Below are positions 5,455 through 57,203 of a DNA stretch of 64,000 nt, piece after piece (position 1 is the stretch's first letter; every line of letters starts with the position of its first letter). Origin of the DNA: a virus; the IMG/VR virus record IMGVR_UViG_3300047368_000324, positions 1 to 64,000 of that record; one strand, 5' to 3'. The translations under genes and the position numbers were made by a program. The notes beneath the pieces are model-generated. The model saw nothing but the letters and a program-made list of their open reading frames with translations, searched no databases and was not told the origin of the DNA.

Positions 5455-6642
5455 ATGCAAACACTAGAAAAACTATACAAAATAGACTCTAAGGGTCGGC
5501 TTAGAGAATGGACAATGCACATTAATCGTGATACATTTTTTGCGGTTAAAGGTTTAGTTGGCATGAAGCTTACAGAAGACAAACCTACATTTTGTACTGC
5601 TAAAAATATAGGTAGAAGTAATGAGACTTCTGATGAAGAGCAAACAATTTTAGAAGCAAAAGCTAAGTGGGAAAAGAAGCTTAAAGAGGGTTACGCAAAG
5701 ACTCCCGAAGATGCGGAGACTAGAGCATATTTCGATCCCATGCTTGCACAATCTTATGATGATCGCCATTTAGAAGTCGAAGAAGCATATAAGAAAGGTG
5801 TAGTTTATTGCCAACCAAAACTTGATGGGATTCGTTGTATCGTAAGGAAAGAGGGTGACGATATTATTGCTAGAACTCGTAATGGTAGAGTTATTGATGC
5901 AGTTCCGCATATTACTAAAGAATTAAGTGTTTATTTTAAAAATAACGAGAAACTTGTTCTTGATGGAGAATTATATAACCATGATTTAAAACATGATTTT
6001 AATAAAATAGTTTCATTGGTTAGAAAGCAAAAGCCAAGTAGAACTAAATCAGATACAGATAAATCTTTTCAAAAGAAATTAGATAAATTTGACAAAGCAC
6101 TAAAGGAATCGAAGTCTCTTGTTCAGTATTGGATATATGATATACCTCAAAGTAATACTTTTAAATGCAAGCACTCTTTCTCAGAGCGTTTCTTCGCTGA
6201 AGATATATATGAAAGTGATTCTATCAAATTAGTGAAAACAGGTGTTGTGTCAAGTAAAAAACATTTAGACAAATACTATTCAAAATATATTCAAAAAGGA
6301 TATGAGGGTCAAATGATTCGTATTAACAATGCCTATGAACAAGGTAAGCGTAGTGCAAAGTTGCTAAAGCGTAAAGATTTTATGGATGCGGAGTATCTTG
6401 TCACAGATATTGAAGAGGGTAATGGCAATCGTAGTGGTACGGCAAAGCATCTTGTTTGTTATTGCCCAAAAATGGATACGCATTTTAATTCAAATATCAA
6501 AGGTAGTTTTGATTATCTAGCAGAAATACTAGAAAATCGTGAGTATTACATTGGTAAATACGCAACGATTAAGTTCTTTGAATTGACTCCCGATGGTATT
6601 CCAAGGTTTCCTTATGCACTTTCTTTCAGAGATTACGAGTAA
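5455..6642 (+). CDS. ATP-dependent DNA ligase (phage type)
   Basis: PMLAQ, adenylation motif QPKLDGIRC, LDGELY, GYEGQMIR, KRSAKLLKRK, C-terminal GIPRFP. Confidence 0.93.
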   Translation: MQTLEKLYKIDSKGRLREWTMHINRDTFFAVKGLVGMKLTEDKPTFCTAKNIGRSNETSDEEQTILEAKAKWEKKLKEGYAKTPEDAETRAYFDPMLAQSYDDRHLEVEEAYKKGVVYCQPKLDGIRCIVRKEGDDIIARTRNGRVIDAVPHITKELSVYFKNNEKLVLDGELYNHDLKHDFNKIVSLVRKQKPSRTKSDTDKSFQKKLDKFDKALKESKSLVQYWIYDIPQSNTFKCKHSFSERFFAEDIYESDSIKLVKTGVVSSKKHLDKYYSKYIQKGYEGQMIRINNAYEQGKRSAKLLKRKDFMDAEYLVTDIEEGNGNRSGTAKHLVCYCPKMDTHFNSNIKGSFDYLAEILENREYYIGKYATIKFFELTPDGIPRFPYALSFRDYE

Positions 6643-8974: not shown

Positions 8975-11257
8975 ATGATTATCACACAAGAAAAATCCAA
9001 ACGAGTCGTATCGTCTCACGATTTCGATTCAGTAAATTGTACCATTGATGCAGAAGATATGCGTTATGTAGCGTCTCTTCTCCGCAACAACTATTCTAAT
9101 CCACCTCTCGCAGTTGTGCGTGAAATTAGTGCTAATGGTTTAGATGCAAACCAAGAAGCGAATTCTTCTCGTCAAGTCGAGATTACAATTCCCTCTAGGT
9201 TTAATCCGCATTTTTGCGTTAGAGACTATGGTCATGGCTTGAGCAAAGAAGATGTTTTCGGTTTGTATTCCAAGTATGGAAAAAGTACAAAGCGTAATTC
9301 TAATTCTTATATCGGAGCTTTCGGTATAGGTAAGTTCGCCCCATTGTCTTATGGAAATAATTTCACCTGTGTATCTTTTCATGGTGGAGAAAAAGCTTCT
9401 TACAATGTATTTGTCAATGAAGATGATGATACCAAAATTGTAGAACTACATAGAGAACCTAGTAATGAACCAAGTGGTTTATCCGTAGAGGTTGCTATTG
9501 CAGATGAAGATATTGATAAATTTAGAGAAATTGTTAAAGCTTTCTTTCGTTTCTTCGATAAGTCAGAAATGCCAAAATTTATAGGAGTTGACAAGGATGA
9601 AAAGTTCTTTGATGATTACAATGTCGTACTTCAATCCAAGAATAAAGATTGGTTCATTATTGATGACCAACAAGATTATTGGAGAAGAAGTCACTCTCAA
9701 TGCCATGCATTTATGGGCAGAGTGCATTATCCAATAAATACAAGTTCTATTGACTTTAAAAACTATGTCGAAGAAGATTATGACTTTTCACCTCTAAAGA
9801 ATATATGTGAACAAGACAATGTTTATATTAGATTTGATATTGGTGAATTGAAATTGCATCATAGTCGTGAGTCCTTAGAATACAACAAAGCTACGCAAAA
9901 AGCTATTGTTGCAAAGTTACGCAAGATGTACGATGACATCCAAGAAATTGCCAAGGAAAAGCTTGGTGGAGCAACTTGCCTATGGGATGCGAAAGCAAAG
10001 TATGCACAGGTTATCAATGCGTTACCATATCAATTAAGAAATGTCTTTCAAAATACTTTTAAATGGAAAAATGTCCCTATCAATAGTGCAGTCTTCCATC
10101 GCCCTCATAACTATCATGAAGATATAATCATTACTGAATATACCAAAACGGATGACAAAGATGTTACTGATGGATATAAAGTAAGAAGTCAAAAGTCAAG
10201 CAGAGTCGATGTTCACATGAACAATAGGCTTATGATTCAAGACATTAAATCTCCACATGGTAATGCCTTGAGAGCTAGAACTATATTCAACAAGGATGAC
10301 TCTATTGTTGCGGTGTATTGCGTATCTTATACTGATTGTGGTAGCCAATATTTATATGGCGATGAAGATGGTTGGCAACTCAATCTTGTCTCTAAGAAAA
10401 ATATATTTTATACTAGCAATGTTGAGAAAGCTAAGTTAAAGCAAGGCACTAGATCAAGTGGTGAGTCACGCTCATCCGTTCCAACTTTCTTGTATGATCC
10501 ACAAGGATACAGAAATTCCGATCAATGGAAAAATGGTACAGAGCAAGATAAGCTTGAAGCAGAGACAGATGAAGATTCACAAAATGTATATATTTCTATT
10601 AGTAATTATAAGCCAAATGGTGATTATAGTTACTGCTTAGATAGTCTCAAGCGTGATTTCAAAGGCATGAAAGCTTTACTGAAAAACCTAGATGAGCCTA
10701 TGATTGATCTTCATGGTATTCGTAGTGCGGATGTTTCTAAGCTTGACAAGTCAAAATGGATTGAATGGAAAGATTATCGTATTCAAAAAGCAAAGTCTGC
10801 CCTACTTCGCAGAAAAGCTGATTTATTGCGTGGAGAGCGTAGGCTTGCATACCAAGAGCATCGACATGAAATGCACAATGTCAAGAGTATTGAAGGTTTA
10901 CTAGCTAATAATAGCCTAAAGAGCATTTTGAACAAAAGCCTTAACAAGAACCATGACCTTCGAGAAGCAATAAATATTCTCACAGATTCTCAAAGAGAAG
11001 AGGTTGTTTTGTCAACATTAAGTCAACTCAAGAATTTGGTGCATGATAATGACAAAGATTGGTTCAAGAAAAATTTCTCTTCTACATATAATTGGAAAAG
11101 TTTCGATTACCTTTGCAAGGAAATCATAGACAAGTACCCATTACTAATGAATATAAATTCATCAATATATGGATGGCAGAATCTTGCGGAGCAAAACTTT
11201 GGCAAGAACATTGCAGATTATATTTCTATGTGTGATAAGCTAGGGGGTGAGGCATGA
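8975..11257 (+). CDS. rIIA: rIIA-like protein (N-terminal GHKL ATPase)
   Basis: YSNPPLAVVREISANGLDA, VRDYGHGLS, YGKSTKRNSNSYIGAFGIGK, SRESLEY; adjacent to rIIB-like gene. Confidence 0.85.
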   Translation: MIITQEKSKRVVSSHDFDSVNCTIDAEDMRYVASLLRNNYSNPPLAVVREISANGLDANQEANSSRQVEITIPSRFNPHFCVRDYGHGLSKEDVFGLYSKYGKSTKRNSNSYIGAFGIGKFAPLSYGNNFTCVSFHGGEKASYNVFVNEDDDTKIVELHREPSNEPSGLSVEVAIADEDIDKFREIVKAFFRFFDKSEMPKFIGVDKDEKFFDDYNVVLQSKNKDWFIIDDQQDYWRRSHSQCHAFMGRVHYPINTSSIDFKNYVEEDYDFSPLKNICEQDNVYIRFDIGELKLHHSRESLEYNKATQKAIVAKLRKMYDDIQEIAKEKLGGATCLWDAKAKYAQVINALPYQLRNVFQNTFKWKNVPINSAVFHRPHNYHEDIIITEYTKTDDKDVTDGYKVRSQKSSRVDVHMNNRLMIQDIKSPHGNALRARTIFNKDDSIVAVYCVSYTDCGSQYLYGDEDGWQLNLVSKKNIFYTSNVEKAKLKQGTRSSGESRSSVPTFLYDPQGYRNSDQWKNGTEQDKLEAETDEDSQNVYISISNYKPNGDYSYCLDSLKRDFKGMKALLKNLDEPMIDLHGIRSADVSKLDKSKWIEWKDYRIQKAKSALLRRKADLLRGERRLAYQEHRHEMHNVKSIEGLLANNSLKSILNKSLNKNHDLREAINILTDSQREEVVLSTLSQLKNLVHDNDKDWFKKNFSSTYNWKSFDYLCKEIIDKYPLLMNINSSIYGWQNLAEQNFGKNIADYISMCDKLGGEA

Positions 11258-11271
11258 AAATGCCTCTCCCC
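11244..11271 (+). terminator. GC-rich hairpin at the rIIA stop
   Basis: gggggtgaggcat-gaaa-atgcctctcccc; no strong U-tract; a new TTGACT promoter follows. Confidence 0.4.
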
Positions 11272-11336
11272 AAAACTTTCATCTTGACTTTCACGACAAT
11301 TCAAACTAATATTATATACAACAAAGGATAAAAATT

Positions 11337-12431
11337 ATGAGCGAAAAATTAGCGTACAACTTGAGCGAAGATTCCATTACTATCTTTTTTGATGGAAAAC
11401 CACACACGATCCGTAAAGATAATGCAAATTTCTCTGCATTACGATCTGCAATCTTTGAGGGGAGATATGATGATGTCCCCGAACTTCTTGACATCAAGAA
11501 GGCAGTTGAAGATTTTGTAGAGGGTGATGTTGAGGTTAGAGATGAAGTCTTATATTATAAAGGCAAACATAGATTACATGGAGTTGTCGTTGACAAACTC
11601 TTAGATATGTTGCGTAGTGGAATGAAGGATTCTACTCCAATAACTAATTACATTGGTAGATTGATGAATAATCCATCATCTAACTCTGTTGACGAACTTT
11701 ATAGCTTCCTAGGGTATAAATCTTTACCGATTTCTCCCGAAGGTAAAGTTTTAGGTTACAAGGGTGTTCAATCTGATTATTGGAGTAACACAGGCAATGC
11801 AGATACAATCGTGTTGCAAGGCGAAACCAATAGCAGACATCAAATTTACAATGGTGTTGGCGAAACTATTGAGATTCAGCGTAGAAGTTGCGATGACAAC
11901 AAAGACAACCATTGTTCTCATGGTTTGCACATCGGTTCGTATGATTATGCTAATAGTTGGGCATCTTCTGAAGGCAGATTACTTCTTGTGGAGTTTGATC
12001 CGCAAGATGCAGTCTCCGTTCCAACGGATTGTAATTTTCAAAAATTAAGGGTTTGTAAGTACAAAGTGGTTGCAGACATTACCGACTCTCGTCAAGAGCT
12101 AGATAAGGTAGTCTACGAGGCTAATAAGCCTATCTATGGTTCTGATGCTGATGATTGTTGCGAAGATGAATCTTGCGACTACGATTGCGAGGGAACGATC
12201 ACAGGCGAGTGGGACGATGAGGAAGATTTAGTTTCAAAATTAGATGTTAAAAACTTTATTGAAAATAAATTAGATAATGGCGAAGAGGTTACTCTTAAAC
12301 TTATATCTTCATTGAAGGTTTGTAGAGAAGAAGGTTGGAGAATAAGAGACATTGCCGTTATAGTTGAAGACTTGGGTTTTGATCTTCATAGTGATGCTGA
12401 AGAAATCATGTCAAATTGGAAAGTTTCATAA
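11337..12431 (+). CDS. rIIB: rIIB-like protein
   Basis: LYSFL...LPISPEGKVLGYKGV, HCSHGLHIGSYDYA, DPQDAVSVPTD, KLRVCKYKVV. Confidence 0.88.
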   Translation: MSEKLAYNLSEDSITIFFDGKPHTIRKDNANFSALRSAIFEGRYDDVPELLDIKKAVEDFVEGDVEVRDEVLYYKGKHRLHGVVVDKLLDMLRSGMKDSTPITNYIGRLMNNPSSNSVDELYSFLGYKSLPISPEGKVLGYKGVQSDYWSNTGNADTIVLQGETNSRHQIYNGVGETIEIQRRSCDDNKDNHCSHGLHIGSYDYANSWASSEGRLLLVEFDPQDAVSVPTDCNFQKLRVCKYKVVADITDSRQELDKVVYEANKPIYGSDADDCCEDESCDYDCEGTITGEWDDEEDLVSKLDVKNFIENKLDNGEEVTLKLISSLKVCREEGWRIRDIAVIVEDLGFDLHSDAEEIMSNWKVS

Positions 12432-15882: not shown

Positions 15883-16305
15883 TTTTGAGCATAGATCTCG
15901 CAAGCATTAAGTTGCTAAAAGCCAATTCTTGTAAGTCTCAATTCACTTTGGAACAATGAGTCGATAGCTGAGTATCGGACATTGACTCGTTCCATTCTAT
16001 TTGGAAGGGCTTATAATCCTTCCTGTGGGTGACTCGAAATAACCTGTCGTGAGCGGGTTAAGGTATGCAGATCCCTGTGGTAGGGACGGTAGAGTCCAAT
16101 CGGATGAGCCGAATGACAAATGCCAAGTCTAGTCTGTAGTTCGAAGTAGGTAATCCATGAACTGATGTTCACGCCGAAAAGTTGAAGGTATACAGTAGTC
16201 CTTCCCCACATTTATTTTTACAGGCAAATATGCGGAGGTTGTGTGTTGCCTCTAGTGACTATCATCGCCTGTTAGGTAACTCAATAAAAGCCTAACGCTC
16301 CAAAA
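15883..16305 (+). ncRNA. large structured non-coding RNA, family not recognised
   Basis: GC-richer, no credible ORF; ends pair (ttttgagc / gctccaaaa); helices ggaac..gagtcgat/attgactcgttcc, ggaaggg/tccttcc, tgtggg/cccaca, taacctg/cgggtta, tccct/aggga, tcgg/ccga, tgaac/gttca, gaagg/ccttc, caggc/gcctg, gttagg/cctaac; own promoter and terminator. Confidence 0.72.
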
Positions 16306-17642: not shown

Positions 17643-17721
17643 CAACACCCTGAACATCAACGACTTATGAAATTTTCGCCTAGTCTGAGAATCTCGTAAG
17701 TCTTTAAGAAGCAAGGATTTA
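17643..17721. repeat. arm-core-arm element, copy A (core CCTAGT 17679; left spacer 11 bp)
   Basis: caacaccctgaacatcaacgactta-tgaaattttcg-cctagt-ctgagaatctcg-taagtctttaagaagcaaggattta. Confidence 0.8.
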
Positions 17722-17777
17722 CAACAAAAGTAAAAAAAGTGTTGACAGCAAGCAGTCTGTAGGTTAGTATTATATAC

Positions 17778-19345: not shown

Positions 19346-19425
19346 TAAACCACTATCCCCCAATGACTTGGGGGATTTTGGTCCTAGGCCCGCCGTGCCG
19401 GAAGTCTATGATAGAGAAGCACTTA
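19346..19425. repeat. arm-core-arm element, copy B (core CCTAGG 19383)
   Basis: taaaccactatcccccaatgacttg-ggggattttggt-cctagg-cccgccgtgccg-gaagtctatgatagagaagcactta; overlaps a terminator-like hairpin atcccccaa-tgac-ttgggggat. Confidence 0.8.
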
Positions 19426-19803
19426 AGTAACAAAAAAAATGTATTTATTAGTCATTTTATAGTTGCAATTTAAACCCGTTCTGTCATACTTATATGTATG
19501 ATAATTAATGAAGACTACCAATCAGATGAAAACCCTAGTGCTGAACTCGTTGTCGAGGCGATCATGGATCAAATCTCTGACATACTTATTCAACCTATGC
19601 ACGAAAAACTTACTGCTGAAGATCAACTTACGCTTGGTCTTGTAGCAAGTGCCTTAAAGGTATTAGGCAAGAAAGCTCAAGCTTACGATAATTTACAAAA
19701 CGGAGATTTACCTCTCGATTGGCAAAATTAATGCTTGACTTTTTATATATATTCACTTATACTTATATTATAACAATCAGATAAACCCAAACTTAAAAAA
19801 ATT

Positions 19804-20601
19804 ATGTTAGATACAACTCAAGAAACTCCTCGTCTTAACCTTCGCATTTGCGGTAACCGATCAACCATCGTTGACATGGATGCCGTTCGTAGAGTGCCAA
19901 CTCCACAAGCAACCAATCGCTGGAAACCTATTGCTCACTCAAAAGTTGTGGATACAACTCGAAACACTCTTGAAGACAAAGGTTTTGAAATTCTTAACGA
20001 ATGCCATAATGTGACCAAAGGTGGCGAGCATTACTTTGGAATGTTTCAAGTCAATCATGCTGACCTTTCCGATAATGGTGGCGAGCGTGGTTGCGTTGTG
20101 GGCATGAGAAATTCCCATGACAAACTTTTCGCAGCAGGTTTGTGTGCAGGTGACGCACCATTCATCTGTGACAATCTTATTTTTCACAATGAAGTTGTAT
20201 TTACTCGCAAGCATATTGGCGATGTTCATGGCGAACTTATTACGAGAGTGAACAAAATCACCGAGTACTTAATCCCTATGTGGACTCGCCAAAATGATCG
20301 AGTGCAAGCTTACAAAGACCTTGCCGTCAATGATCGAGAAGCCCAACATCTTATTTTCGATGTTTACGAGGCAGGAATCAAGACCAATTTGATTGGTAAA
20401 TCCATGCTTGCCCAAGCTTGGGAACAATGGAGAAGTTCTGACCACAAAGTTTTTCAAGATCGAAATCTCAATTCATTGTACAACGCATTCACGGAAGTAA
20501 GCAAAGGCAGAAATGTTATGCACTTGCCCAAACGATCTGAAATCTTTCACAATGCTTTTGATCCTGTCGCAGGGGTTGAAGAGGTTGAACTCGTAGCTTA
20601 A
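19804..20601 (+). CDS. DUF932/DUF945-family protein
   Basis: WKPIAH, GMRNSHDK...GLCAG...FICDNLIF...RKH, SLYNAFTE. Confidence 0.75.
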   Translation: MLDTTQETPRLNLRICGNRSTIVDMDAVRRVPTPQATNRWKPIAHSKVVDTTRNTLEDKGFEILNECHNVTKGGEHYFGMFQVNHADLSDNGGERGCVVGMRNSHDKLFAAGLCAGDAPFICDNLIFHNEVVFTRKHIGDVHGELITRVNKITEYLIPMWTRQNDRVQAYKDLAVNDREAQHLIFDVYEAGIKTNLIGKSMLAQAWEQWRSSDHKVFQDRNLNSLYNAFTEVSKGRNVMHLPKRSEIFHNAFDPVAGVEEVELVA

Positions 20602-20875
20602 TTTTAACACTAAAAACAAAGGATATATATTATGAAATGCCGTAATCTCAACGAAGTACTCGATTCACGCAAAGGACGATTTGTTTCCGTCCTTCTCAAG
20701 AATGGTCTGAAGCGTGAGCTTTATTCAGCTAAAGTTCACGACTATAATTCTAAAGCCGTCCGTTTCCGTGACACTAATGGGGGCGAGCGTAGAGTTGAAC
20801 GCTCTATGATTGTCAGGGCTAAGGTTGCCGAGCGTTATTTTAAACGCTCAAGGAGCTGACCAAAGCCCTCCTTCA

Positions 20876-20905
20876 AAAACCCTTGGGAAACCAAGGGTTT
20901 TTTTT
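20876..20905 (+). terminator. intrinsic terminator
   Basis: aaaacccttgg-gaaa-ccaagggtttt plus T run, directly before repeat copy C. Confidence 0.85.
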
Positions 20906-20911
20906 GTGCCT

Positions 20912-20991
20912 TAACCTATTGTAGGTCAATGACTTACGGGCCGGCAACCCTAGGGAAATTAACTCGCAAGTCTTTGATTATCAAGCGTTTA
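20912..20991. repeat. arm-core-arm element, copy C (core CCTAGG 20949)
   Basis: taacctattgtaggtcaatgactta-cgggccggcaac-cctagg-gaaattaactcg-caagtctttgattatcaagcgttta. Confidence 0.85.
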
Positions 20992-21035
20992 AAATTAAAT
21001 GTTGACATTGAGTTCTTATCTGTTATTATATAGTT

Positions 21036-22523: not shown

Positions 22524-22603
22524 TAACATTTTTATTATCAACGACTTACGTAAGTGGTCGCCTAGGTTGAGTTTTGCGTAAGTCTCTAAGTATCAAAGAT
22601 TTA
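22524..22603. repeat. arm-core-arm element, copy D (core CCTAGG 22561), at the +/- strand switch
   Basis: taacatttttattatcaacgactta-cgtaagtggtcg-cctagg-ttgagttttgcg-taagtctctaagtatcaaagattta. Confidence 0.85.
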
Positions 22604-22906: not shown

Positions 22907-25900
22907 TCAAGCGAAAAGAGGATGCAATTTTACATCTTCGAAACGAATCCCAACCTTGCGGTCGGTGCGATACGGGCGAACCATAGCGATGGTGCCAAGC
23001 TCTTCGTGCTCGGTAGCTTGGATAAATTGAAAGATTTTATTATCTCGAGAGATAAGCACATCACCTTTTTTAAATTTATTTTTATCTGACATATTATTTT
23101 TTAGTGTTGGGTTACTACATTAAAACGAGGAGAGTTTAGATTCTCTTCTCTTTCGATTGTTCTAAGGTATGAAAGACTTGACGCAGTCCGAACCCGTGGG
23201 TATTCAGTTCCTGTGTCGAAGATCTTAACAGACCAATGCGTTGACCATTTTTTGATTCTAACTTGTATTTTATCTTTAATCATATAACTACTATCGCATA
23301 TAAATTCAGAAATTGCAAGAAAAAAGTGAAAAAAGATTCTTTTATTTTATTGCACTATTCTGTTCTGACTAGTCGGCAGATGCCGTAAGTCTTTGGCTAT
23401 GTGCTACTTAGAACACAAGAGCCTCGACATTTTGATTTGATACGGCAAACCAATCGGATGGATTAATGATATGACCATTTAGTACAGGCTCAAAGTTGAC
23501 CTGACTTACTCCGGCATTGACTATTCCATTTACCCGCTCGCGAGTTGTTGGAGTGTTCCAGCCAGCCAGCGACCATATCACAAACCCGCTTGCGTCACGC
23601 TTGATTATAGCGTTCCCATGCAACCAAACGGTGTTACCGTCCGTGCGAGTGTTGCCAACTGTCAAAGGTTGGCGAGATTCAAAAGCTTGTTTAATTTGTT
23701 GTGTTACTTGTCTCATTATTTTATATTAAGCATTATCATTTGGTTTTGCAAGCATAAACTTCATAAAAGTTTCTTGAGCTTTTAGATTGTCTTGGATCTC
23801 ATCAAGCTCAATCTGTGCGTTAATTACCATCTGCTGACTTTGGATGTGCCCCGCTTCTGCATTTGGTGTGAGTACTCGAATAAGTTCTTTAAGCTCTTTT
23901 ATTTTATCCATGGTTTGAGAGTATTGGAGTTTGTGTTTTGATTTGTAATTGCTTTGCCTTTTTCATGGCTTTAGCGTGAGTCTTTGCGTTATCTACGAGT
24001 TTTCCAAAGAGGCGAATATCGAACCAGTTTGAAAAGTTTGGGTTTTTATCAACATTAATCATAAGTCTTATTATGCAGTTTTGAGTTTAAATGTCAAGCG
24101 TTTCTTTCAACTGACTTCCAACCATAAGCTAAAACTTTGTCATTATAGCGAGCTTGTGAAAGCATAGCCTTAAGGTCAGAAATTTTTGCATTGATCCAAT
24201 CAATTTCGCTTTGATCCATTTTACCTTGCCACATTGCAAGTTGGTTTTTTTCTATTGCGATTTCGTTTTTTATTTGTTCTGTTGTCTTAATCATATTTAC
24301 AATCTATTCTATTTTTTAGTAAAAGTCAAGTTTTATTTTACTTTTTTTTAGCTATTACAAAAGCTAAAAGAATTTTTTCTCTTTCGGTGAGTTGTGTTTT
24401 ATTAATCTTTATCATATAAACAACATAGCAAGAAAATCGCTAAAAGTCAAGAACTTTTTTAATTTTTTAAAACTTTTTTTCTATTGTAAGTCTTTGATCT
24501 TTAGAGACTTCCGGCACAGCCGGCCTAGGCCCGTAGGCCCGTAAGTCCTTGATTACCAAGGCGTTTCGTCTTCTTTCATGTCTTGCCACATGAGGTAGAA
24601 TACTACAAGCCAAGGAGAGAATAGGATAATTTCGATCATAATGTTATTTTTTGCGTTGTTCGTGCAGTACGGTTTGAAACTTTTTGCGAGCTTCTTGTAC
24701 TGCGTGGAGAGCGTCGAGGATTGCCATGCCCTGAGTAATGCTCAAGGTTTGATCTCCTTCAGTGTTGCTCGTTTGAGCGAGGAAATTGAGATTTCCTTCA
24801 GCTTTAGAAAGTGCGAGTCCCAAGTCAAGTTCGGGAAAGTCCATTTTTTTTGATTCGTTCATATTAGAGAGATATTCTTGCACCTGTTCTGATTGGCTCG
24901 CGAAGATCTTGAGCTTGAGATTCAAGTTTGCTTGCGATTCTCATTGCCTGTGCGTGAGATTTTGCGTTATCAACAAGCCTTCCGTCAAAAAGGATGTTGA
25001 ACCATTTAGTGAAGTTTGGGTTTTGTATTATCTTTATCATGTAACTAATCTATAAAAGTTTTTGGTAAAAGTCAAGTTTTATTTTAATTATTTTTCAAAA
25101 ATTCTATTAATGTAGTAGCTGTAATCCTCGCCAAAGCTGAGGTGAGATTGTAACTCACGCACACGCTTGGCAACTTGTCGCCGTACTTCATGCTTATCTT
25201 TCGCTTGGTATGTTAACACATGATTGGTGCTTTCCATCATTACTTGGGAATTTGTGTTTGTATTAAAGAAGGGGAGCTTGCCACCTCCAATTGAACTGAC
25301 ATGGATATTTGCGGTGAATGTTTTATTTTTAATCATAAGTTTATTATAGATTTATATTTTAAGAAGTCAAGACCTATTTACTCGTATTGTGAGTGGAAGC
25401 CCCAATCAATGTCAGGCTGCTCGTCGAACTCTCTCAAGGATAGCTCGTCCTGTAGCTGCCCAAGCTCATTGCGTATTACAACGCGTTGAGAGTCGCTAAG
25501 TATGCACTCAGCAAGAGCGGTTTGTAGTGTTAGTATTTCTCTCTCTATTTCTTTTGTTGTCATATATACAATGTAACATATTATAGCTAAAACACAAGCC
25601 TAAAATGCAACTATTTTATTACATTATTATGTTATTGTAAGTCATTGTTTATTATAGACTTAGGGCACGAGCGGCCTAGGCCTGCCGGCCCGTAAGTCTT
25701 TGATTATTAAGCGTTTAGAACTCGTCCATCAAAAGCTCGTCCAAGGCGTATGTATCAAGCTCGGGGTCTTGGTAGTTCGCACCATCAGGGGTATGAAGCG
25801 TGCCTGATTCTACTAGGAAATTGGCTAGATCTTTGTAGTGCACAAAACGCCTAGCTAGCTTGTATAAGCTCTCATCGTTGCCTAACCATAGGGCCACATT

Positions 25901-31483: not shown

Positions 31484-34400
31484 ATGGGTTCTAGCGGATA
31501 TCAGATTAACGAACTCGAAGGAGGGTATTCTCCAACAATTTCTGAGAAAGGTATTGATATATACGGAGGTCCCAGGGGTTCCTTGGCTGGAACGCTTCCA
31601 ACATGGATCGCGTGGTGGGTTGCGAATTACAGATATACTCCTGGACATATCGTATACATGCCTGGCGTTTACAACGCAGATGGCAGCAATGGAACTTACT
31701 ATGACACCAATGGGATGTCCTCAAGGAGGGAAGAGATTGCTTACTCTCAGGACATTCAAGCTGTAAACCTTCAGGAAGGCGGAGACCTTGTTGGTGGAGA
31801 CATGGGACGCGCCGGAAGTGAATATTCTACTGGGTCGAATAAAAGGCAATATTTTGAATACGGTGCACATACTTTATGGGTTAAATTATTTGGCGAACCA
31901 GATAATAGTTCAACTAATGATTCTTCGCTGTTAACTGACCAAGACTTTTTTAACGTTACAAAACGAAGACGAAATGGATGGTATTGTTTTTATGAGTTAA
32001 TGAGTGAAGTTGACCCTCAGGGCAGTGGCCAGCTTGAAATTGCTTTTCCTCAAGGAAATAGTGTGAACAATAACACTTGGAATAATACAAAAAAAAGATA
32101 TTCTATCGTTGTTGGCAATAAAGAGACCTTGAAAGTGGTCTATGGCTCTTGGGGCGAGGATTTATTTAGACAAATTTCATGCGAACCAGGAAGTACAACG
32201 GAAATCAAAGTTAAGCATGACGAGACAGTTTTAAATATGTGCGATAGTTTTATTTTATTCGCCGCTGTAGTTGCTGCGAATACGGGTGGTGATTTAGATT
32301 TAATTAATTTTGTCGTTTGTAAAAGTGTGTTAAGATCTTCTGGCACTATTGAGCAAAATTTAGAAACTTCTCCTGTTGAAGTTGCAATTTTACCTTCTGA
32401 TAAAGTTTCAATTGGGGGTAATGTACTCAGAAGTCCTCAAGAGGTTCCGGTTAGAGATATGGTTGACCCCAGTTTTAATGGGAGTTCTGATTTCTTCCAA
32501 GACGAAAATGGGCAAGATGAAACTGCGACAATGGTTTCTGCAGGCTACCCTGGAGTATTAAACCCAGAATCTATTTTTCGTGCAGCGCAAAAATCTAGTG
32601 ATTTCGATGGTACCATAACAAGAATAGCTCAAGGAAACACGGCGGCTAGCGAGGTAATAATGAATGACGCTGACTTAGATGACGACCATTTATATCTAGA
32701 CAAACTAAAGTTTGGCAAAGTCCCTGCATATGACCCTAGGTTTGGAGAAGCATCTAGCTCATTAAATAGTTTTATTAGTTCTGTCTATAATTTTTCCCTT
32801 CCGATGTCTACTAGCTCAAGTATTGATTTCTGGCAATCTGGCCAATTTTACAAAGTAGGCAAGGCTGTTAGGTTTTCTCCGAATCAGTCTGAGTATTCAA
32901 AATCCGAAGCAAATCGAACGATTAAAGATGTCATATGGGTAAGTAGAAAAGACCATGCTTCTACATCAAGCAATAAGCCTCCAATGGGGGCGGGGTCAGG
33001 TATGCCTTCTGATTTTGAAAATGAATGCTGGAGATCTTATGGAGTTTTGGCTAATCAACCGAATTCATCATTGTTACAATTGAATGATGTCTACAGGGAT
33101 TCGGAAGTTTTTGTTGGAGGTTTAATTATCAATAAGTCTCCAGATGAAATCTTATCAATAAGTGGTGAAATGGTCGACCGCGCTCTACTTGGTTCCGAGC
33201 GAAGAATTAGAATGTCTGAAATGACAGGAGGTTCTAGATTATATGCGAGCTTGACTATATCTCCTGCTAAAAAGTTTAAAGTCAAATATTACAGAAAAAG
33301 AAATAGTTGGGGCAGACGTTCTAGCGTAACGTTTAGATTTCCGCCCGCAGTAGAAGATGCTGCGGCTGCAGATTTATGGTTATATGCAAATAATTTTAGA
33401 AGAGATCACGCGGGTTCAATAAATTTTGCCGTAACTTTTGTTACGCATACGAGTTTTGTATGGGCTCAAGCGAAGAAACGCAGGAGCTCATTTTTTGGAA
33501 TCTTATTGGGTGTTGCATTGGCGGTTGTTGGCATTTTGAATCCAGCGCTGTTTTTGACCGCAGGAATGCAGTGCGCAGCATATGGCTTCGGGGGAGGTTT
33601 AGCGCTGGGAGCCTTAGGTGGAGCTGTTGGGTTGGGCGTGGGCACCGCATTAGGCGCTAGTGCAGAAGCTGTTTATGCCAACTTGGGAAAAGGGGTTGGC
33701 CGAAAAAAAGCTTTCACAAGAAGTTCTTTCTCTCAAGTTATTAGTAAGATTGCAAATGATGCTCCGTCCGCAAATTATGTATTAGATAGAGGTTCCGCTC
33801 CAGAAAATGGCATGGTTATTGGACGTAATAGCTCAGATGTGTCAAGTATGTATGATACTAATCTAGGAGGTAGTAATGCAAATGTACAATCTGAAAATGA
33901 TATAATTCGTTTTAATTTTGGTAACCTTTATCCATATTTATATGAGAGTAAATATGGTAATACAATTCATGTATCTGGTCAGTATCAATTTTTAATACAA
34001 GACTTAAATTCTGCTAGCGCAATTAAGATTGCTTTTAATTATGAGGAGATAAGTCGTAGAGGTGGTAGGGGCGCCGTTGATAGCTTTGGCAATACATTTT
34101 CGGGGTATCCAGCTGGGACACCCGAAGGTAGTCATGCAGGCGCAAATTCAACGCTATGGAGTCAATATCGAAATGCCGCGAATGAGATTGTAAATGGTAA
34201 CGCGAGTAGTACTGGTAATTTAAAATTAATATCTACTAAAAACTATTTTAATTATTTATTAATTGGACCCGAAAACATAAGAGATGATTTGGACCCCTTA
34301 AAAGCTTTGGTTATGTGGTCAATGGATTTGAGTGACGCTCAATTTAGCGCACTAGTCGGCATGATTCAAACAGGCTTTCGAGATTTAACATTTAACTCCA

Positions 34401-37400
34401 GCGGTTCCTTTTCTGATCAAGATGGGCTTAGTGATTATAAGGAAATTTATACATCTAATCCACCTATAGCTGCTGCAGAAAATGTAGCAGCCACAGGTTA
34501 CCAACTAGAAATATCAAACAATACCATAACACACGTTAAGGAGGATAAAACAAACGGTCGGAGGGTAAAAATCCTTAAGAGCGTTGGCGAATCCCAGGGA
34601 ATGAGCAGAGAAGATATGGAAGTCTTGGCTAAAGGGCTTGCTCCTGGAGAATTTTTGCTTGGAAAAGATTTAGAGAATTCTACGCCACAATATATAAACT
34701 TTTTAAAATCTTCAGCTCTTTCTGGAGCGAAAGAATGGACTTCAATAAATAACGGAGTTAAAATAAATGGCGGAGACGTCATACAAAATGGACAAGATTT
34801 TTACTTTGTTAATGCAACCTTTATCAAGAATAATCAAAACCTATCTGACGTTGCGACTTTAGTTCCAAGATCTTCTTCTCAAATATATACCGCCGATTCA
34901 TTCTCTCCGAGTTTAACACTGGTTAAACAATGGCAAAAAATGCTTGAGTCTCCATATTATACCGAGCAGACAAATGACCGTTCTGCCTCTTATTACCTTG
35001 CGGGTAGGAAGTTAGACTTTTCTTTCGTTGTAAAAGAAAGTGCAGACCCTTCTTTATTTAATCTATTTTTCTTTGGATTCTCGGATTATATTCCAAATTT
35101 TGCCTCAGCAAATATGGATACATATGAAATTGATAGCGTTGCCCAGCTACCGATGATTAAAGATTCAAAGGATTTGACTGGAGATTATATTGGTAATGGA
35201 TCAACTCAATTTGTTCGTGACGATGCAACTTATACTACTAAACATGTTTTTAGATTAAAAGACAATATTCCTCGAACAGCAGAGCTTCCTGTTGGCGCAA
35301 TCCCTGGTTTTAAATCAGAGCTTTCTTGGGAGTACTTAGGTTCGCCTTCTGATCTTACTCCATCAGTCATATCAGAATGGACGCTACCTGTCTTGAAGGA
35401 GACTGTGTCAGAATTTACTCCTGGGCAGGATGTTATAGCCACTAATAAGTTGCGCCCATTAGGTTTTTGGAAATCAGAGGCGGGCACCAAACTTTCTGGT
35501 TCGAGTATTAATGGAATAATCGAACAGCAAGAGTTTTCGCTCACGGTCAACTTCCCATGGATTAAAATGACCAGCGCGCCTAGCGATTCGACTGCTCAAT
35601 ATGTTACAACTCAAAACAAGGATGGATCTACCGTATATTTACTTTCTCCTTATAGCAAGGTGTCTGGGCAGACTTCTGGAATTAATTTAGCAGCATTTAT
35701 ACCCTCGAATATAAATGACACATGGAAGGGGTTAATGAACAATACTATTCTAAGTAGTTCTCAGACCAATTATATACTTGACGCATATCTTACGAATAAA
35801 CTTGACATATTAAGAACTTTTGAAGTTCAAGGTTTTGAGGTTTCTCATATTCAAATTGTTATTTCACCTATTACTGACTTAATCGATAAAATTGAAGTTT
35901 GGGATCCTACCGCAAATTACTCAGAAGGAGATGTTGTTCTCGTGCATCATACGAATTATAATTACCTTTCAGAAGAAACAGGTAAAATGCAAGCGGCTCA
36001 AAGCGAATTTGGGAAATTATGGTTATATGCAAGAGCCACGCGAACTATTACAAATGGAGAAAAACCTTTTCATAACGATAATCCAGAGCCTAGTGCTGCT
36101 CCAGGCAGCATGGGGGAATTGGGCGAAGTAATATTACCTGTCGATACAAAATATTGGGAATGCTGTACTGCAAGAGAAGGTTCTACTGTAGACAGTATAA
36201 CAAGCGGATTGGGCGCAAAAAAATTAGCAAAATCTTGTTACGGAACCGATTTAGACGTCAAGACCTATACTGTTTCGATGGGAGAAGCGGATACGTTTAC
36301 GCAGCCAGGCAGAAGCCAAAAAACTACCGAAATTTACATACCCCAACAAAGAGGAATTTACAATAAAAATGTTTCTATGGATTTTAGTTCCCCTAAAAAT
36401 TTAATTTTTACAACAACAATATCTCCTGAAGCTAAAATTGTTGGACGATTACCTTCAAGCGCCGTGGCGTATACAAATGAAGGAGGAACCTGGCCTGGAA
36501 CCCTTAACCAGAAAGATACGCAATATCTTGAGCCTAGTGATTATGCAAATTTATACGAAGAGAATCCTTTGATTAATTTATTTTTAAGAAGAAGCGTTAA
36601 TGCTGGGGCAAGATGGAGTAATTGGATTGATGGAATCATGACGAGCGGGCAGGATGCTGAAATATATAAAAAGATTACATACTCTCAAGGGGATGAATAT
36701 CAAAAATTTGAGACAATGCCTACTGTTGAGCTCGCTGTATCTAAGGATTCTGGAAGTACTTTTGAAGAGTTCGTTGCTAAAAGAGAATTTGACGAAAACT
36801 ATCCAGTTTTTCATAAGGGTTTTGATATACCAGTCGGAATTAAGGCAACGATATCAAATGCGCTAGGTATAAATGACAGCCCTTCTAATTCAGTTGGATC
36901 AAATTTATATGGCTATATAAGCTGTTTATATAACCCAGGAACAGAAGTAGTAGGTGGAGCGTCAGGTTTAATAAATTTTATTGGAGAAGGGACTGGTTCA
37001 GAAAACGTTAAGTTAAAGAATTGGAGTGGGACAGATATAGGAAATTCTACTGCGGCTGATTTTTATGAAACTATCGCCACAGATGATGAAAGTGGGCTTT
37101 TGCAATACGGACCCCAAACTATATCAGACGAACTAACTTTACATTCACTAAATGGAATCAATCGAACGAATTATACACCAGCATTTAAAATATTTCTTCC
37201 TGAGACATCAAGTTCAAGGAATCCTCTTGATCTGTGTGTTCAGAAATGCGTATTAATACTTGGAACAAGAGACTCAAATGACGGCTTGACACACAACCGT
37301 ACAAAAATTAAAAACTTCGTATCTGGAAGTGGTATAGATTTCCATTTTGATAACTGGTTTGCTATCCCCGCTGGACAAAATTCATATGTAGATCAATCCG

Positions 37401-40400
37401 GTAACACTTGGCCAGCCACTGACCAAATTGACAAATTTGGAGAAGAAGACAATGAGTTTATAAAAATAAAATCTAATTTAAACACCCTAACCGAGGCATT
37501 GTACGCTTTATCTGATGTCGTTGGAGCCTCTACAACCCATAACAATAATTTCATAGATCTAAGTACGACGCAAACCCATTATCACGGTTCGGCAAATCCT
37601 TTTACTAATTTTGATGAAGTGGGAGTGGGTTACTTGACAAACATATTAAGGGGCGCAGGGGAATTTATTGGCGCAAAAGCCAATGCAAGTTTTAACAATA
37701 GCGGAACTTACATCGGGGGAGTAGGTTTAACTCAAACTACGGTAACTTCTACAGAATTTATGTCAATCTCTCAACCCGCGTTTGAAGATAAGGGTGTGCA
37801 TGGAAAACCTGAAGGTTCATATAACATGTATATGTATAATGATTCAAATTATACCTTCCAAATTGATACAGCTATACCCGCTTTATTATATAAGAAATAT
37901 ACTAATATCAATGACTCAAATGACGTGGTTAATAAAAACTATTACGATTTACTTCTTGATGATAACTGTCCTGGAGGAGGCGACTCCAAGGCAGATTTTA
38001 CGGAAGATTACGTTTTTAACGCCGAAATCAAACTTTTGAAGAATTATTTAATGGTGGGCGAGATATCGCATTATGATTCTAATTTTCAAGAAGCTGATGG
38101 ATATAAAGGTAGAGTTTTTCTAACCAGGTCAGAGCTAGGGGATCCTGTTAATAACGATACAGTAACAATTAAAATTGATGATGGAATCAATTGTCCTCAT
38201 GGAGCTAATTTAAAAACATTGAATTTAAGTTATAAGTTAATTGACCCTCCTAACTTGAGTAGTATAGCCAATAATATAAACGGAAAACTATATTATTATG
38301 ATAATGATACTCATGTTTATAGCTTTGGCGTAAGTTTTCCTGTTGCAAGTGAATTTGGAGGAAGGCTTGTTATTCAAGATGGTATTGGTCCTGATTTAAC
38401 TTTTGAATCTCAATCTGGACCTCCTGCTATAAATTATACTAGACCAGATAGCCAAGCAACCTCAGTCACGTTTACTATCGATGATGGGGTTCCTCACGGG
38501 TTTGGCGTTGCGAGAACGGGCGCCGCATATCACAATTTAATTTATCCAGGCGGATTTAATCCTGTACAAAGCTTTCCAGTTGTAACAATTGCGGATGTTG
38601 CTATCGAAGGATCACTTGGTGTTAGCGGAGATGGTTATATTGCCAATAAAGTTGTCGGGGTTTTTCCTGACATGACCATTGTTCAAATAAACAAGCAGTA
38701 TATTTACAATAATTCTGATCACGAATACAAAGGCCTTTATATTAGTATGCCCGCGTTTAATATCGCAGACACTACAGATAGAGGCCTCTTTGTTTCAAGG
38801 TCTTCAATTTCAAACCGAGGAATATCGCGTACGCTTGAGCTCGGGTATCCTGTATTTGGTTTTGGACCAATGCATGCCAAAGCAGTGCTTCATGAAAAAA
38901 TGTTTCCACCTGATGATAGCGGTACCGCAACCCTCTCGATTCAAGATGGAACCCTGTTAGGCTCTACAAAATCAGAAGGAACTTTTGAAATACCATATCA
39001 AAGATTAGATAAAGCTTTTGGAACAATTACGGGAATTAGAACTTCTTCAACATTCAAATTATGGTCCAGCTCTCCATTGATTAACTCTGGAAATATAGAT
39101 TTAGAAGGGCTCGTAACTTGCTGGGAGCATGCAAAGGTTACAATAGAAACTTCAACTAGTGAAGCTATTGAAATTCAAGACGATTTGATTCAAGAATCTG
39201 CAGGTTTTACAAATTTCCGCTGGAACTTCACGGACTACGATTTAAGCCAGAGTATTAATTCTCAAGCTGATCTTATTGATGGTCTTTATGTAACTATTTT
39301 AGATAGAAGCCGAGGCTCTACCGAAGGGGTAGACACCTGGGAAACTTTTAATTATACTGTTGCCGAAGCGATTGATTTGTTTTTTGAGAGTGGAGAGTAC
39401 CAATATAACTACAATACAGCAAAAAAAGATCTACCAACTGACCCTTTAACGAGAAAGCGTTTTTCCGTACAAATTAAAGCAAAACAAGGTTCACCCGAAA
39501 AACTTGTAGTTGATGATCAACTTCTAAAAGACGGAGGTTGGACACATAGCGCAAACATATCCCTTGGTTCTATTGGCGACTCTGCCGAGGCTCCAATTTA
39601 TACAAACCTCACTCAGTCTTTTAAATACCCTGAGGAGTCTAATAACGTCGTAGTCAATAGAATGGGCGGACAATTTAACATTGCTGACGGAGACAGAAGG
39701 TACACTTCAGTAAACTCAGCATTAATGTATTCTAGCTATGCAACCCTAAGGTCTATGATTATTAATTATAATCCTGATTCTACTGGCAAAATATATTATA
39801 CAAAATTTATAAATGATAGCCCGAATAGAGTTCCTTATTCTGGTTTTAGGTCAAAAATAAAATATGATCCGTCTAGACCAGGAATGAACGAGCCTAATAT
39901 TTGGATGGATCGCTCAAGCTTTGTCAAAAGCGGCATCGATGTAGACGAATACACAACATCCGCTTCTAGTAATGGGGCGATTGATCTATGCCCAAATTCA
40001 ATAACAACATTTATATGGGGCAGTAAGGCAAAATGGCTAACTCATGAGGATGAAAACCCTGAGACGGATTCCTCTCCAAGCGAATTTGATGGAGATAATT
40101 TTGTGGTTTGGAATTCCGAATCATATTACGGCTCGCAAGATTGGGAGGTTATTGGCCGAAGTAATAAAGGAGGAAGCGATAAGAGTTACTTTCACCTTCC
40201 TAGTTGGATTCCTACATTTACAGCTAATCAAGACTGGTTTCAAACAAACAGAATTCCTGGTTGGAGCTTAACAACCCCCCATTTGTCTTTTATAAATAAT
40301 TATGAAAATTTTCAAAGTTACGGAGCAAGTGGTGCGACTAATTTTTGTAATATAATAAAAAATGGAACTGCTGTCTGGGGAGGATTAAGTCTATCTGACG

Positions 40401-50342: not shown

Positions 50343-51004
50343 TGGAGTTTGAGCAAGTAGTGAACCAAAAGTACACTTGTGGAGAGGGCACTCATGTTCT
50401 GTCTCCAGGTCTTAAACAGTGTGCTTTAGATTTTTATCGAACTCCTGATTCTAAAGTTTCTCCATACTTGTACAGAAATTGTCGTTTTGACGGCTCTAAG
50501 ACATTTTGGGCTGCTAAATTTAGTTTTGAATATCAGCAGTTTTTTGAAGGGTGTAGCTTTATTGGTGGCGCATCTGGGATAATTGACGTATGCAGGGGTG
50601 GGGATTTGCAGTTTAAGAATTGCACTTTTATCGCTAATTCTAGAAAAGCTCAATTATTTATTAGGGGCGGCGCTAAAAATATAGTTTTCGAAAATTGTAA
50701 ATTTATATCTGATAGGCCGTTTGTTTTTTCTAGTTGGTTTATTTTTGGAGCTTGGTCTTTGTTTGATTTTTTTTATAGACCATACCTTAGAAATGTAGAA
50801 ATTAAAAACTGCTCGTTTAAAAAGGGCTGTTTAGTTAAAGGCATATCTATGTATTCGGAAAAGATCAAAAGGGACAATTCTTACTTTCCCTGGCTCACAA
50901 TGCCTTGTTGGATAATTAGGGCTTATTGGCGAATAAAAAGAAAAATTATGAAGAGTAAAAATATCCCGCTTTTTATGTCTAAAGTCTACCCTGAAGAGTT
51001 ATGA
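50342..51004 (+). CDS. beta-helix (pectin-lyase-like) repeat protein
   Basis: Repeated F.NC.F units (YRNCRF, FEGCSF, FKNCTF, FENCKF, IKNCSF). Confidence 0.55.
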   Translation: MEFEQVVNQKYTCGEGTHVLSPGLKQCALDFYRTPDSKVSPYLYRNCRFDGSKTFWAAKFSFEYQQFFEGCSFIGGASGIIDVCRGGDLQFKNCTFIANSRKAQLFIRGGAKNIVFENCKFISDRPFVFSSWFIFGAWSLFDFFYRPYLRNVEIKNCSFKKGCLVKGISMYSEKIKRDNSYFPWLTMPCWIIRAYWRIKRKIMKSKNIPLFMSKVYPEEL

Positions 51005-51954
51005 TTGAATGTAAGGTATGCAAAAAGACTTTTAAGTCAGAAAGGGCCTTGCATTGTCATTTAAAGGCTCATGACATGACCATAGCTGAATATTATACTG
51101 AATTTTTCCCAAGAAAAAATAAATTAACTGGCGGGAGCATTCCCTTTAAGGATAAAGATTCATATTTTGACACAGATTTTAGTAATTATTCTGAATTAAA
51201 AAAATGGTGCGACATAACTACCCCAAACGAAGTTAAAGAATATATACTGAAGCTTTTAGAAAAAAGAATCTCTTCTAGGAACCTTAATCGCGCGCCAAGC
51301 TATTTAGAATTAGTTATCAATAAGATGCCAACTATAGATAATTATAAAACTCATTTTGGTTCTTATAGCAATGCTTGCAGCCTGCTTGGAGTAAAGCCTT
51401 TGTTTGAGAAAGCATTACCCCCTGATTTCAATAACTGCGACACGTCTATGTTAAAAATCTTTGTAGACACCAGGGAGCAGCAGCCTCTTTCATTTCCTAA
51501 TTCTGAGACTATGGCATTAAATATAGGAGACTATACTGCTGCGGGAAGTTTTTATGATAGAACTTATATAGACCGAAAAAGTACTAATGACTTTATCGGA
51601 ACATTAAGCTTGTCAAACCTGGATAGATTTAAAAGAGAAATAGAACGGGTGAGAAATGCAGATTCATATTTATTTATTATCGTTGAGTCGAACTTAAAAT
51701 CCCTAGAAAGCTACATGAGGGCAGCAAAAAATAAAAAGTTTGGGCCACATAAAAGTAATTTAAAATTTATATATCATAACATGAGACAGATTACGCACGA
51801 ATTTCAAGATTGTTGTCAGTTTGTTTTTGCAGATGATAGGAGTGGTTTAGAAAATATAATTCCTAAAATATTATTTTTTGGTAGTATTATTTGGGGAGTA
51901 GATTTACAATATTATATAGAAAAAAATGAGCTGGACATCAGGACAACAAAATAG
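51001..51954 (+). CDS. C2H2 zinc finger plus ERCC4/XPF-family nuclease
   Basis: CKVC...HCHLKAH; IFVDTREQQP, IGDY, IDRKSTNDFIGT. Confidence 0.8.
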   Translation: MIECKVCKKTFKSERALHCHLKAHDMTIAEYYTEFFPRKNKLTGGSIPFKDKDSYFDTDFSNYSELKKWCDITTPNEVKEYILKLLEKRISSRNLNRAPSYLELVINKMPTIDNYKTHFGSYSNACSLLGVKPLFEKALPPDFNNCDTSMLKIFVDTREQQPLSFPNSETMALNIGDYTAAGSFYDRTYIDRKSTNDFIGTLSLSNLDRFKREIERVRNADSYLFIIVESNLKSLESYMRAAKNKKFGPHKSNLKFIYHNMRQITHEFQDCCQFVFADDRSGLENIIPKILFFGSIIWGVDLQYYIEKNELDIRTTK

Positions 51955-56066: not shown

Positions 56067-57203
56067 ATGGAAATTAAAATCGAAAGAACCGCAGAGCAGG
56101 TCGAGCTAGTTAAAGCTATGGCCTCTAAGAATCGCGAGGTTGCATATGAAGCTCAAGCTGCACTTGGAGACTTTATTGGTCCAGTGCTAGCAGAAGTTAT
56201 CGCTCAAGCTCCTACTCTTAGTAATTTATTTACTTCTCTTCAGTTTAATTCTGAAGATAATGCAAGTATCCCGTTGGATTTATACCACGATATTACAGAC
56301 GAAGACTATATTCAAATTTGGCAGCAAAGCGCCCCAGGCGGTTTGCCAACTAATCATGTAGCACCCGTACAACAAGAAATGAAGTTTACAACTTACCGCT
56401 TGGATAGCGCACTCTCTTTTGATAAGAGGTTTGCTGCCCGCTCAAGAATGGATGTTGTAAGCAAGACTTTCACACGTATGGCTCAAGAAATTTTGTTGAA
56501 GCAAGATAAGACATCTGCTTCCATGATCTTGACCGCTCTTGGTAATGCTAGTTTTAAAGATAGTGCTGGCGCTGATCAGTTCCACGTACAAGACGCGGTC
56601 ACATCTGGAAGATTTCTTCTTGCTGACCTGAATAAGCTTTTCACTCTGTGCAAAAGACTTAACACTTCTTGGGCTGGTGGAACTCCTGCAGACCGTCGCG
56701 GACGAGGAGTTACCGACTTGATCGTTTCTCCTGAAATTGTTGAAGAAATTCGCGGAATGGCTTACAATCCAATCAATACTGTAAGTAATCGTAAGGTTGC
56801 TGACGGTTCTGGTGGAACTGTTGATGGAGGTGGAGACATCGCTGGAACAGAAGCTCTTCGTGAACGAGTATTTAATAGTGCTGGAATTCCAGAATTCTAT
56901 GGCGTTTCTATCATGGAGATTAATGAAATGGGTAAAGGGCAAAAATGGAACAGTCTTTTCGGCTCAGTAAAAGCCGGAGGAATTTCCTTTGACGCAGCTA
57001 CTCAAGAAATTATAGTCGGAGTTGACTTGTCTCGTGAATCTATGCTTCGTGCAGTCGCAACAGATTCTGAAACCGGTTCTGAATTCGACTTGGTTGTTGA
57101 CGACCAATTTGTGTCAAGATCACAAAAGGTTGGATACTACGGGTCTCTTGAAGAAGGCCGCATGCTTCTTGACGATAGAGTCCTTACAGGCATTATTGTT
57201 TAA
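56067..57203 (+). CDS. major capsid protein
   Basis: 378 aa, strong SD (aggag), position after protease and decoration genes, followed by a strong terminator; TDLIVSPE and PEFYGVSI fit HK97-fold P-domain style. Confidence 0.75.
   Translation: MEIKIERTAEQVELVKAMASKNREVAYEAQAALGDFIGPVLAEVIAQAPTLSNLFTSLQFNSEDNASIPLDLYHDITDEDYIQIWQQSAPGGLPTNHVAPVQQEMKFTTYRLDSALSFDKRFAARSRMDVVSKTFTRMAQEILLKQDKTSASMILTALGNASFKDSAGADQFHVQDAVTSGRFLLADLNKLFTLCKRLNTSWAGGTPADRRGRGVTDLIVSPEIVEEIRGMAYNPINTVSNRKVADGSGGTVDGGGDIAGTEALRERVFNSAGIPEFYGVSIMEINEMGKGQKWNSLFGSVKAGGISFDAATQEIIVGVDLSRESMLRAVATDSETGSEFDLVVDDQFVSRSQKVGYYGSLEEGRMLLDDRVLTGIIV

Follow-up and report, generated by a model that had tools for sequence, protein, structure and literature searches.

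In T4-type phages, promoter-early stem-loops (PeSLs) join a stem-loop or terminator to a sigma70-like early promoter, and these repeated modules flank small, non-essential genes within a plastic early region (Arbiol et al. 2010, PMC2839356; Comeau et al. 2014, PMC4122927). Among T4-type relatives, the junctions of indels and gene replacements fall in PeSLs, and chimeric PeSLs exist, with one crossover mapped to the hairpin loop (PMC2839356; PMC4122927). Here we analysed a window of 64,000 nucleotides (bases 1–64000 of a 76.6-kb virus record, 36% GC) in which seven copies (A to G) of an element of the form GACTT-N13-core-N13-AAGTC lie between 17.6 and 25.7 kb, a family that we file as a variant of PeSL-type cassette boundaries. 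As in PeSLs, a terminator and a strong sigma70-like promoter share one intergenic module (in full at copy C), conserved copies are repeated around small genes (seven here, with others on about 40 related contigs), and junctions fall inside modules, some of which are chimeric (for example, elements F and F2 of the relative G001 compared with F of L178, the relative L205 compared with L172, and a deletion at copy E). Unlike PeSLs, these elements belong to a phage that is not T4-like, what is conserved in them is not a promoter/stem-loop consensus but two 24-nt palindromes enclosing a hypervariable, GC-rich spacer, and they occupy only about one gene junction in four.

Short GC-rich imperfect palindromes also occur as the REP/BIME elements of enterobacteria and the GC clusters of yeast mitochondrial DNA, which lie between genes and at gene 3' ends, are mosaic, and are associated with rearrangements. 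The elements described here resemble both in being short, GC-rich, mosaic, intergenic palindromes linked to rearrangements, but differ from REP/BIME in being phage-borne, restricted to one region, bounded by different conserved termini and inherited at orthologous positions, and no RAYT-type Y1 transposase was found in the three genomes searched (the window genome, G000, and the relatives G001 and G003).

An uncultured marine lineage

The phage comes from a marine lineage that is abundant and uncultured. At the DNA level it has no close cultured relative, and its large terminase is less than 27% identical to that of any cultured phage, with none of the best matches T4-like. Relatives of the terminase were found on 584 IMG/VR stretches, the best 80 of these 584 at 71–96% identity, and a terminase at least 70% identical is encoded on hundreds of IMG/VR contigs. 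Related records span 100–210 kb, and CheckV puts the completeness of the 76.6-kb record, a fragment, at 58%. Its early region is common at the DNA level to two records, G001 (78–90% identity) and G003 (70–79%); scanning metagenomes with the DUF932 gene of the B–C interval added 70 further loci. In 40 more distant relatives the box pattern occurred at chance level, G001 excepted, and relatives that have the gene downstream of the B–C segment, considered for an empty B–C site, are only 43–59% identical and do not carry the element family. No tRNAs were found, and no capsid gene was identified, the candidate (a 378-aa open reading frame (ORF) at 56067–57203) having no PHROG or phage tblastn match.

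Element copies and their setting

Small genes, mostly each with a sigma70-like promoter, fill 13–27 kb of the window; those among the seven copies encode 40–265 aa, and the elements separate groups of one to five of them, with terminators preceding the elements and sigma70-like promoters coming after. Copy A (17662–17702; 41 nt, core CCTAGT) is AT-rich in both arms and is accompanied by a sigma70-like promoter at 17742–17770. The left arm of copy B (19365–19406) is a terminator strand, and its right arm is GC-rich and contains a 5-bp stem/3-nt loop motif of the type CCGGC-NNN-GCCGG. Copy C (20931–20972) combines a GC-rich left arm with an AT-rich right arm and is followed by a decayed right outer box (20973–20991), the second half of the 24-nt flanking palindrome. 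Copy D (22543–22584) lies at the convergence of plus- and minus-strand gene blocks; copy E (23369–23392, core ACTAGT) consists of the right half only; and copies F and G, each with both outer boxes (24487–24566 and 25638–25717, with core elements at 24506–24547 and 25657–25698), are GC-rich in both arms. The exact pattern GACTT-N13-CCTAGG-N13-AAGTC occurs five times in the window and once, as a chance match, in the rest of IMG/VR. Half of the CCTAGG sites in the window (5 of 10) and 10 of the 12 CAA-N-GACTT boxes of the genome are in elements, which are confined to one 8-kb region of the genome.

The full arrangement is seen at copy C, where a canonical intrinsic terminator (20880–20905, plus strand; 7-bp stem, GAAA loop and T-run), with compensatory changes in the orthologue alignment, ends 26 nt upstream of the element, and a sigma70-like promoter of the next gene (21002–21029, plus strand; TTGACA-16-TATTAT) follows 29 nt past it. 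Across the family, element-to-promoter distances form loose clusters at 29, 35–40 and 50–56 nt, made up mostly of orthologues.

Anatomy, conservation and folding

A box scan of related loci yielded 89 distinct copies, 38–43 nt long, from the window and about 40 related contigs. In its complete form, the module is a 24-nt palindrome (TAAGTC-N-TTGA-NN-TCAA-N-GACTTA) present twice around a 26–32-nt spacer, with the GACTT and AAGTC boxes forming the inner halves of the two palindromes. In the 89-copy profile the boxes are near-invariant and covariation is absent; conservation extends over the left flank as C-N-TAAG ... TTGA-N-TA-TCAA-N-GACTTA-C-G and over the right flank as CGTAAGTC-N-TTGA ... TCAA-N-GA-T-TTA, and the base after AAGTC is T in 40 copies and G in 14. 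The spacer is mostly GC-rich and fast-evolving: conservation is lowest at positions 9–14, adjoining the centre, and orthologous C copies diverge far more inside the element than in its flanks.

Most copies fold as one long hairpin, with no excess structure in the spacer interiors relative to shuffles (mean z −0.34). In plus-strand gene contexts, plus-strand RNA was the more stable in 37 of 54 copies (17 showed the opposite; P = 0.0015), a count that includes non-independent orthologues and to which base skew could contribute; this bias towards the sense strand hints at a role as RNA. No element matched Rfam. Both AT|GC and GC|AT orientations occur in plus-strand contexts.

The CCTAGG centre is lineage-specific, occurring only in the window and in L183, L185, L213 and L214, with CATAGG, CCCAGG, GCTAGG, CCATGG, CAGGGG, GGCCTCCCC-like and other centres in the remaining relatives. 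Some lineages have one centre motif common to their copies (CCTAGG in G000, L183 and L185; the GGCCTCCCC-like motif in L172 and L205), and the core varies among copies within G001 and within L178. All four plus-strand-block cores of G001 are one substitution from CCTAGG; restriction avoidance of CCTAGG in G001 was considered and rejected, as 15 CCTAGG sites lie elsewhere in that genome.

The mixed halves of copies B and C

The sequence-only reading had proposed that B and C are reciprocal recombinants of an A-like and an F/G-like element, switching at the CCTAGG core. All of the sequences it quoted are present at the places it gave. We compared halves over their 13 variable positions against composition-preserving shuffles; since 13 informative positions per arm are too few for trees, pairwise identities, orthologues and breakpoint mapping were used in their place. 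The right half of B matched the left half of F at 11 of 13 positions (P = 0.0008), as did the left half of C the right half of G (P = 0.00065), and GC content alone, which had been named as a possible refutation, fails as an explanation of these GC-rich halves (shuffle P about 7 × 10−4). Similarities to A were at or below significance (B-left versus A-left, 7/13, P = 0.01 uncorrected; C-right versus A-right, 6/13, P = 0.08), in keeping with the earlier caution that the A-like assignments were the weaker ones. For the GC-rich halves, then, the mixed composition of B and C is real; for the AT-rich halves, the case is weak.

The GC-rich similarities do not point to particular parents. These halves also agree at 10–11 of 13 positions with non-orthologous halves of other genomes, so they represent family-wide arm types and carry no mark of a particular exchange. 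The right arm of copy B in G001 is identical to the right arm of the window's copy G at 12 of 13 positions; the 'G-like' type is thus carried on the other side, and an arm type can occur on either side of the element. Between the orthologous B sites, the two GC 'types' are separated by only about 3 of 13 positions.

The 'A-like' left half of B has a different origin. An intrinsic terminator of the upstream 52-aa gene (19355–19380, plus strand) has a 9-bp stem (19355–19363 paired with 19368–19376) followed by a T-run; it overlaps the left box of copy B, and the left arm of B is its descending (3') strand plus T-run. The hairpin at 19355–19376 is kept in 10 orthologues, with four pairs changed on both sides and the T-run present in most. 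The left half of B thus has the GC-rich hairpin, T-run and compensatory changes of an intrinsic terminator and, because it is a conserved strand of the upstream gene's terminator, its resemblance to A is not one of descent. G003-type relatives have the terminator apart from copy B, and both arms of that copy are AT-rich.

Both mixed states are also old. The terminator|GC state of B and the GC|AT state of C occupy the same positions in G001, L178, L183, L185, L188 and L191, and recur in relatives whose neighbouring gene is as little as about 83% identical at the protein level. Because they are conserved in place, these states predate the lineage split, and the present A, F and G are not their parents. 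The mixed halves of B and C are old, stably inherited states drawn from family-wide arm types, and the two copies are not a recent reciprocal pair produced by strand exchange at CCTAGG. The origin of the left half of B, the age of both states in six relatives, the weak similarity to A, the indifference of arm types to side, the replacement of CCTAGG in relatives and the failure to find a recombinase (see below) all count against that proposal.

At the C site of L180 and L182, an in-situ inversion of copy C was considered and rejected, the copy there not being orthologous; in these loci the terminator is separated from the element by another small gene and what may be a small RNA. In L182 (5397–5660 of that locus), a very basic ORF of 37 aa stands in place of the gene that follows the C-site terminator; beyond it lie a promoter-like site, a stretch of about 120 nt with pairing ends (GTTACAG ... 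CTGTAAC), possibly a small RNA, and then an element.

The element centre as a join point

Exchange of halves at the core, the more general part of the earlier proposal, fared better than the B/C pair at CCTAGG: the halves assort separately, and joins at the centre are seen in relatives. In G001, a 718-bp cassette that is absent from L178, G000 and L185 lies between two hybrid elements, F and F2. The single element of L178 matches G001 F on the left (left flank 50/70, left arm 16/18 identical) and G001 F2 on the right (right arm 17/18, right flank 70/70 identical). The left arm of F2 differs from the E-type arm of L178 copy F at 8 of 18 positions (10/18 identical), F2 has 22 identical nucleotides with copy E to the right of the centre, and its flanks switch likewise. 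In L205, an element found uninterrupted in L172 is split at its centre by a 688-bp insertion of a promoter and a 206-aa gene, and each junction carries a repeat of about 9 nt of that centre; the inserted gene is found inverted, and at another place, in L209 and L210. At copy E of the window and of L185, the left outer box and left arm have been deleted as far as the centre (by comparison with G001 and L178). Over all locus pairs, 28 structural breakpoints lay within 25 nt of an element centre compared with 18.3 ± 4.0 at random positions, a modest enrichment against a lenient null, most indels between relatives lying elsewhere. These comparisons support the element centre as a recurrent join point in the relatives, in a general sense.

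The minus-strand block between E and G also contains paralogous gene pieces (23954–24046 and 24932–25024, 71% identical) and a 73-nt repeat that bears a promoter and is present three times (24277–24349, 24398–24470 and 25023–25095), which together indicate tandem duplication of cassettes between E and G.

On balance, we think it probable that copies B and C, like the other five, represent a conserved, PeSL-like boundary module, the arms of which evolve and exchange separately and the tip of which serves as a break and join point. Its boxes may owe their conservation to recognition of their sequence, whether by a protein that binds DNA or in RNA, where they would form the base of a hairpin at transcript 3' ends. 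The two spacer halves would evolve and exchange separately, as the comparisons above show in part, and the centre, as the hairpin tip, would be a preferred point of breakage and joining, for which the joins in relatives are again part of the evidence. What acts there could be recombination, template switching, or repair after breakage, involving either other copies or co-infecting genomes. From a fragile hairpin or cruciform tip one would expect deletions on one side (as at E), chimeric elements, and insertions bounded by short repeats of the centre. We favour this reading, in which ordinary processes of recombination and repair act on a fragile centre of the palindrome, over a dedicated enzyme: the positions adjoining the centre are the least conserved, and the elements therefore fit a classical core site poorly, although the centre repeats in L205 and the lineage-common centre motifs are also expected from a core-dependent, site-specific mechanism. 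Candidate enzymes are an ERCC4-type nuclease homologue (51001–51954, plus strand; PHROG 3490, E = 2.6 × 10−10) and an ATP-dependent DNA ligase (5455–6642, plus strand), which could perform structure-specific cutting and joining and act on hairpins.

Read in this way, early-gene plasticity in this abundant lineage of uncultured marine phages falls within the same frame as PeSL-mediated shuffling in T4-type phages, with a double-palindrome boundary module as the added feature. With the hairpin tip as a repeated break and join point, the two halves of one module can differ in history.

Alternative explanations

The explanation with the next-best standing, possible but in our judgement rather unlikely, dispenses with exchange altogether and attributes the mixed look of B and C to functional constraint and ordinary divergence, the GC-rich arms being alike through a CCGG/GGCC-rich family consensus and the AT-rich arms through T-runs. 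The fast-diverging interiors, the terminator origin of the B-left T-run and the lack of significance of C-right versus A-right all agree with it, and the difference of about 3 of 13 positions between the GC 'types' at B fits the divergence expected between G000 and G001. It does not account for G001 F2, where the partner switches at the centre and the flanks switch too, a rearrangement and not point divergence, nor for the L205 insertion, which splits an element exactly at its centre.

Site-specific cassette integration, which we consider unlikely, would make the elements recombination sites with a 6-bp crossover core (CCTAGG here): the three-gene B–C segment would have entered as a circle with an F/G-like site and met an A-like resident site, leaving B and C as attL/attR-like hybrids. 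The composition of the copies (A, AT|AT; F/G, GC|GC; B, AT|GC; C, GC|AT) fits attB × attP giving attL and attR, and both arms facing the B–C segment are of the GC type; moreover, cassettes in relatives were inserted at centres with the centre repeated at both junctions, and some lineages have a single centre motif per genome. Against this, the core differs among copies within G001 and L178, the core-adjoining positions that an enzyme would bind are the least conserved while the conserved boxes lie 13 nt away, and copy E is a one-sided deletion to non-element DNA. At the B–C segment itself, B-left is a terminator, the A-like similarities are not significant, and AT|AT elements flank the same three genes in G003-type relatives with no separate history seen for the segment. 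Searches for Phage_integrase, Resolvase and Y1_Tnp, that is, for tyrosine and serine recombinases and Y1 transposases, gave no match in the window genome (G000, 58% complete) or in the two near-complete relatives (G001, 95%; G003, 100%); the controls of the PF00589 search matched in 14 of 14 genomes, and the search concerned phage genes, so that an enzyme encoded by the host is possible.

Like these elements, the attC sites of integron cassette arrays are imperfect palindromes that mark cassette boundaries, with outer boxes that are conserved and an interior that varies, and hybrid sites flank inserted cassettes in both. In attC, however, the crossover lies in the outer R box (R'), whereas the junctions here lie at the centre; the R''/R' consensus (RYYYAAC/GTTRRRY) is not seen in the boxes of these elements (TCAA-N-GACTTA and TAAGTC-N-TTGA), the cassettes here carry their own promoters, and no IntI-type integrase was found with PF00589 in G000, G001 and G003. 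Sites of the loxP, FRT and dif type share the layout of two inverted arms around a 6-bp centre (palindromic CCTAGG here) but, unlike in these tyrosine-recombinase sites, variability is greatest in the arms adjoining the centre, the centre is conserved neither among relatives nor among G001 copies, and no recombinase gene was found.

A related possibility, also unlikely and if anything slightly more so, is that cassettes are integrated and excised specifically at the centre without a recognisable recombinase, B and C being attL/attR-like scars of an old integration of the B–C segment. The outer palindromes would then dock a hypothetical phage or host factor on a hairpin or cruciform, and exchange would take place in the short, lineage-specific centre (CCTAGG here, GGCCTCCCC-like in L172 and L205). 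Were such a dedicated enzyme to exist, the elements would amount to an integron-like gene-capture device in a lytic phage.

Least probable by far is that the elements are small mobile palindromic repeats (of the MITE, REP or mitochondrial GC-cluster type) inserted in either orientation, with mixed halves arising from independent insertions and decay: terminal inverted repeats around a GC-rich interior in a 36% GC genome, and the presence of both orientations in plus-strand contexts, agree with this idea, but the elements hold the same orthologous positions across diverged relatives (the B and C sites being occupied in all relatives examined), are restricted to 8 kb, and have no transposase match in the Y1_Tnp, integrase and resolvase searches of G000, G001 and G003.

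Other features of the window

A 3,846-aa ORF (31484–43024, plus strand) that adjoins an internal-virion-protein homologue had no sequence match in Pfam, PHROG or PDB and may encode a giant protein that is ejected or part of the virion. The idea that the elements are N4-type hairpin promoters for a virion RNA polymerase was considered and found unsupported, given the lack of such matches for this ORF; a search with PF00940 gave no match, nor any from its own controls. On the minus strand, an 827-aa ATP-dependent protease homologue (58794–61277) matches PHROG 4871 (E = 5.9 × 10−230). The phage, otherwise non-T4-like, has rIIA-like (HATPase_c_3) and rIIB-like genes (8975–12431, plus strand), and a full-length match to the Rfam manA RNA motif (RF01745; 73.6 bits against a gathering threshold of 55.2, E = 1.8 × 10−17) lies at 16003–16214 on the plus strand.
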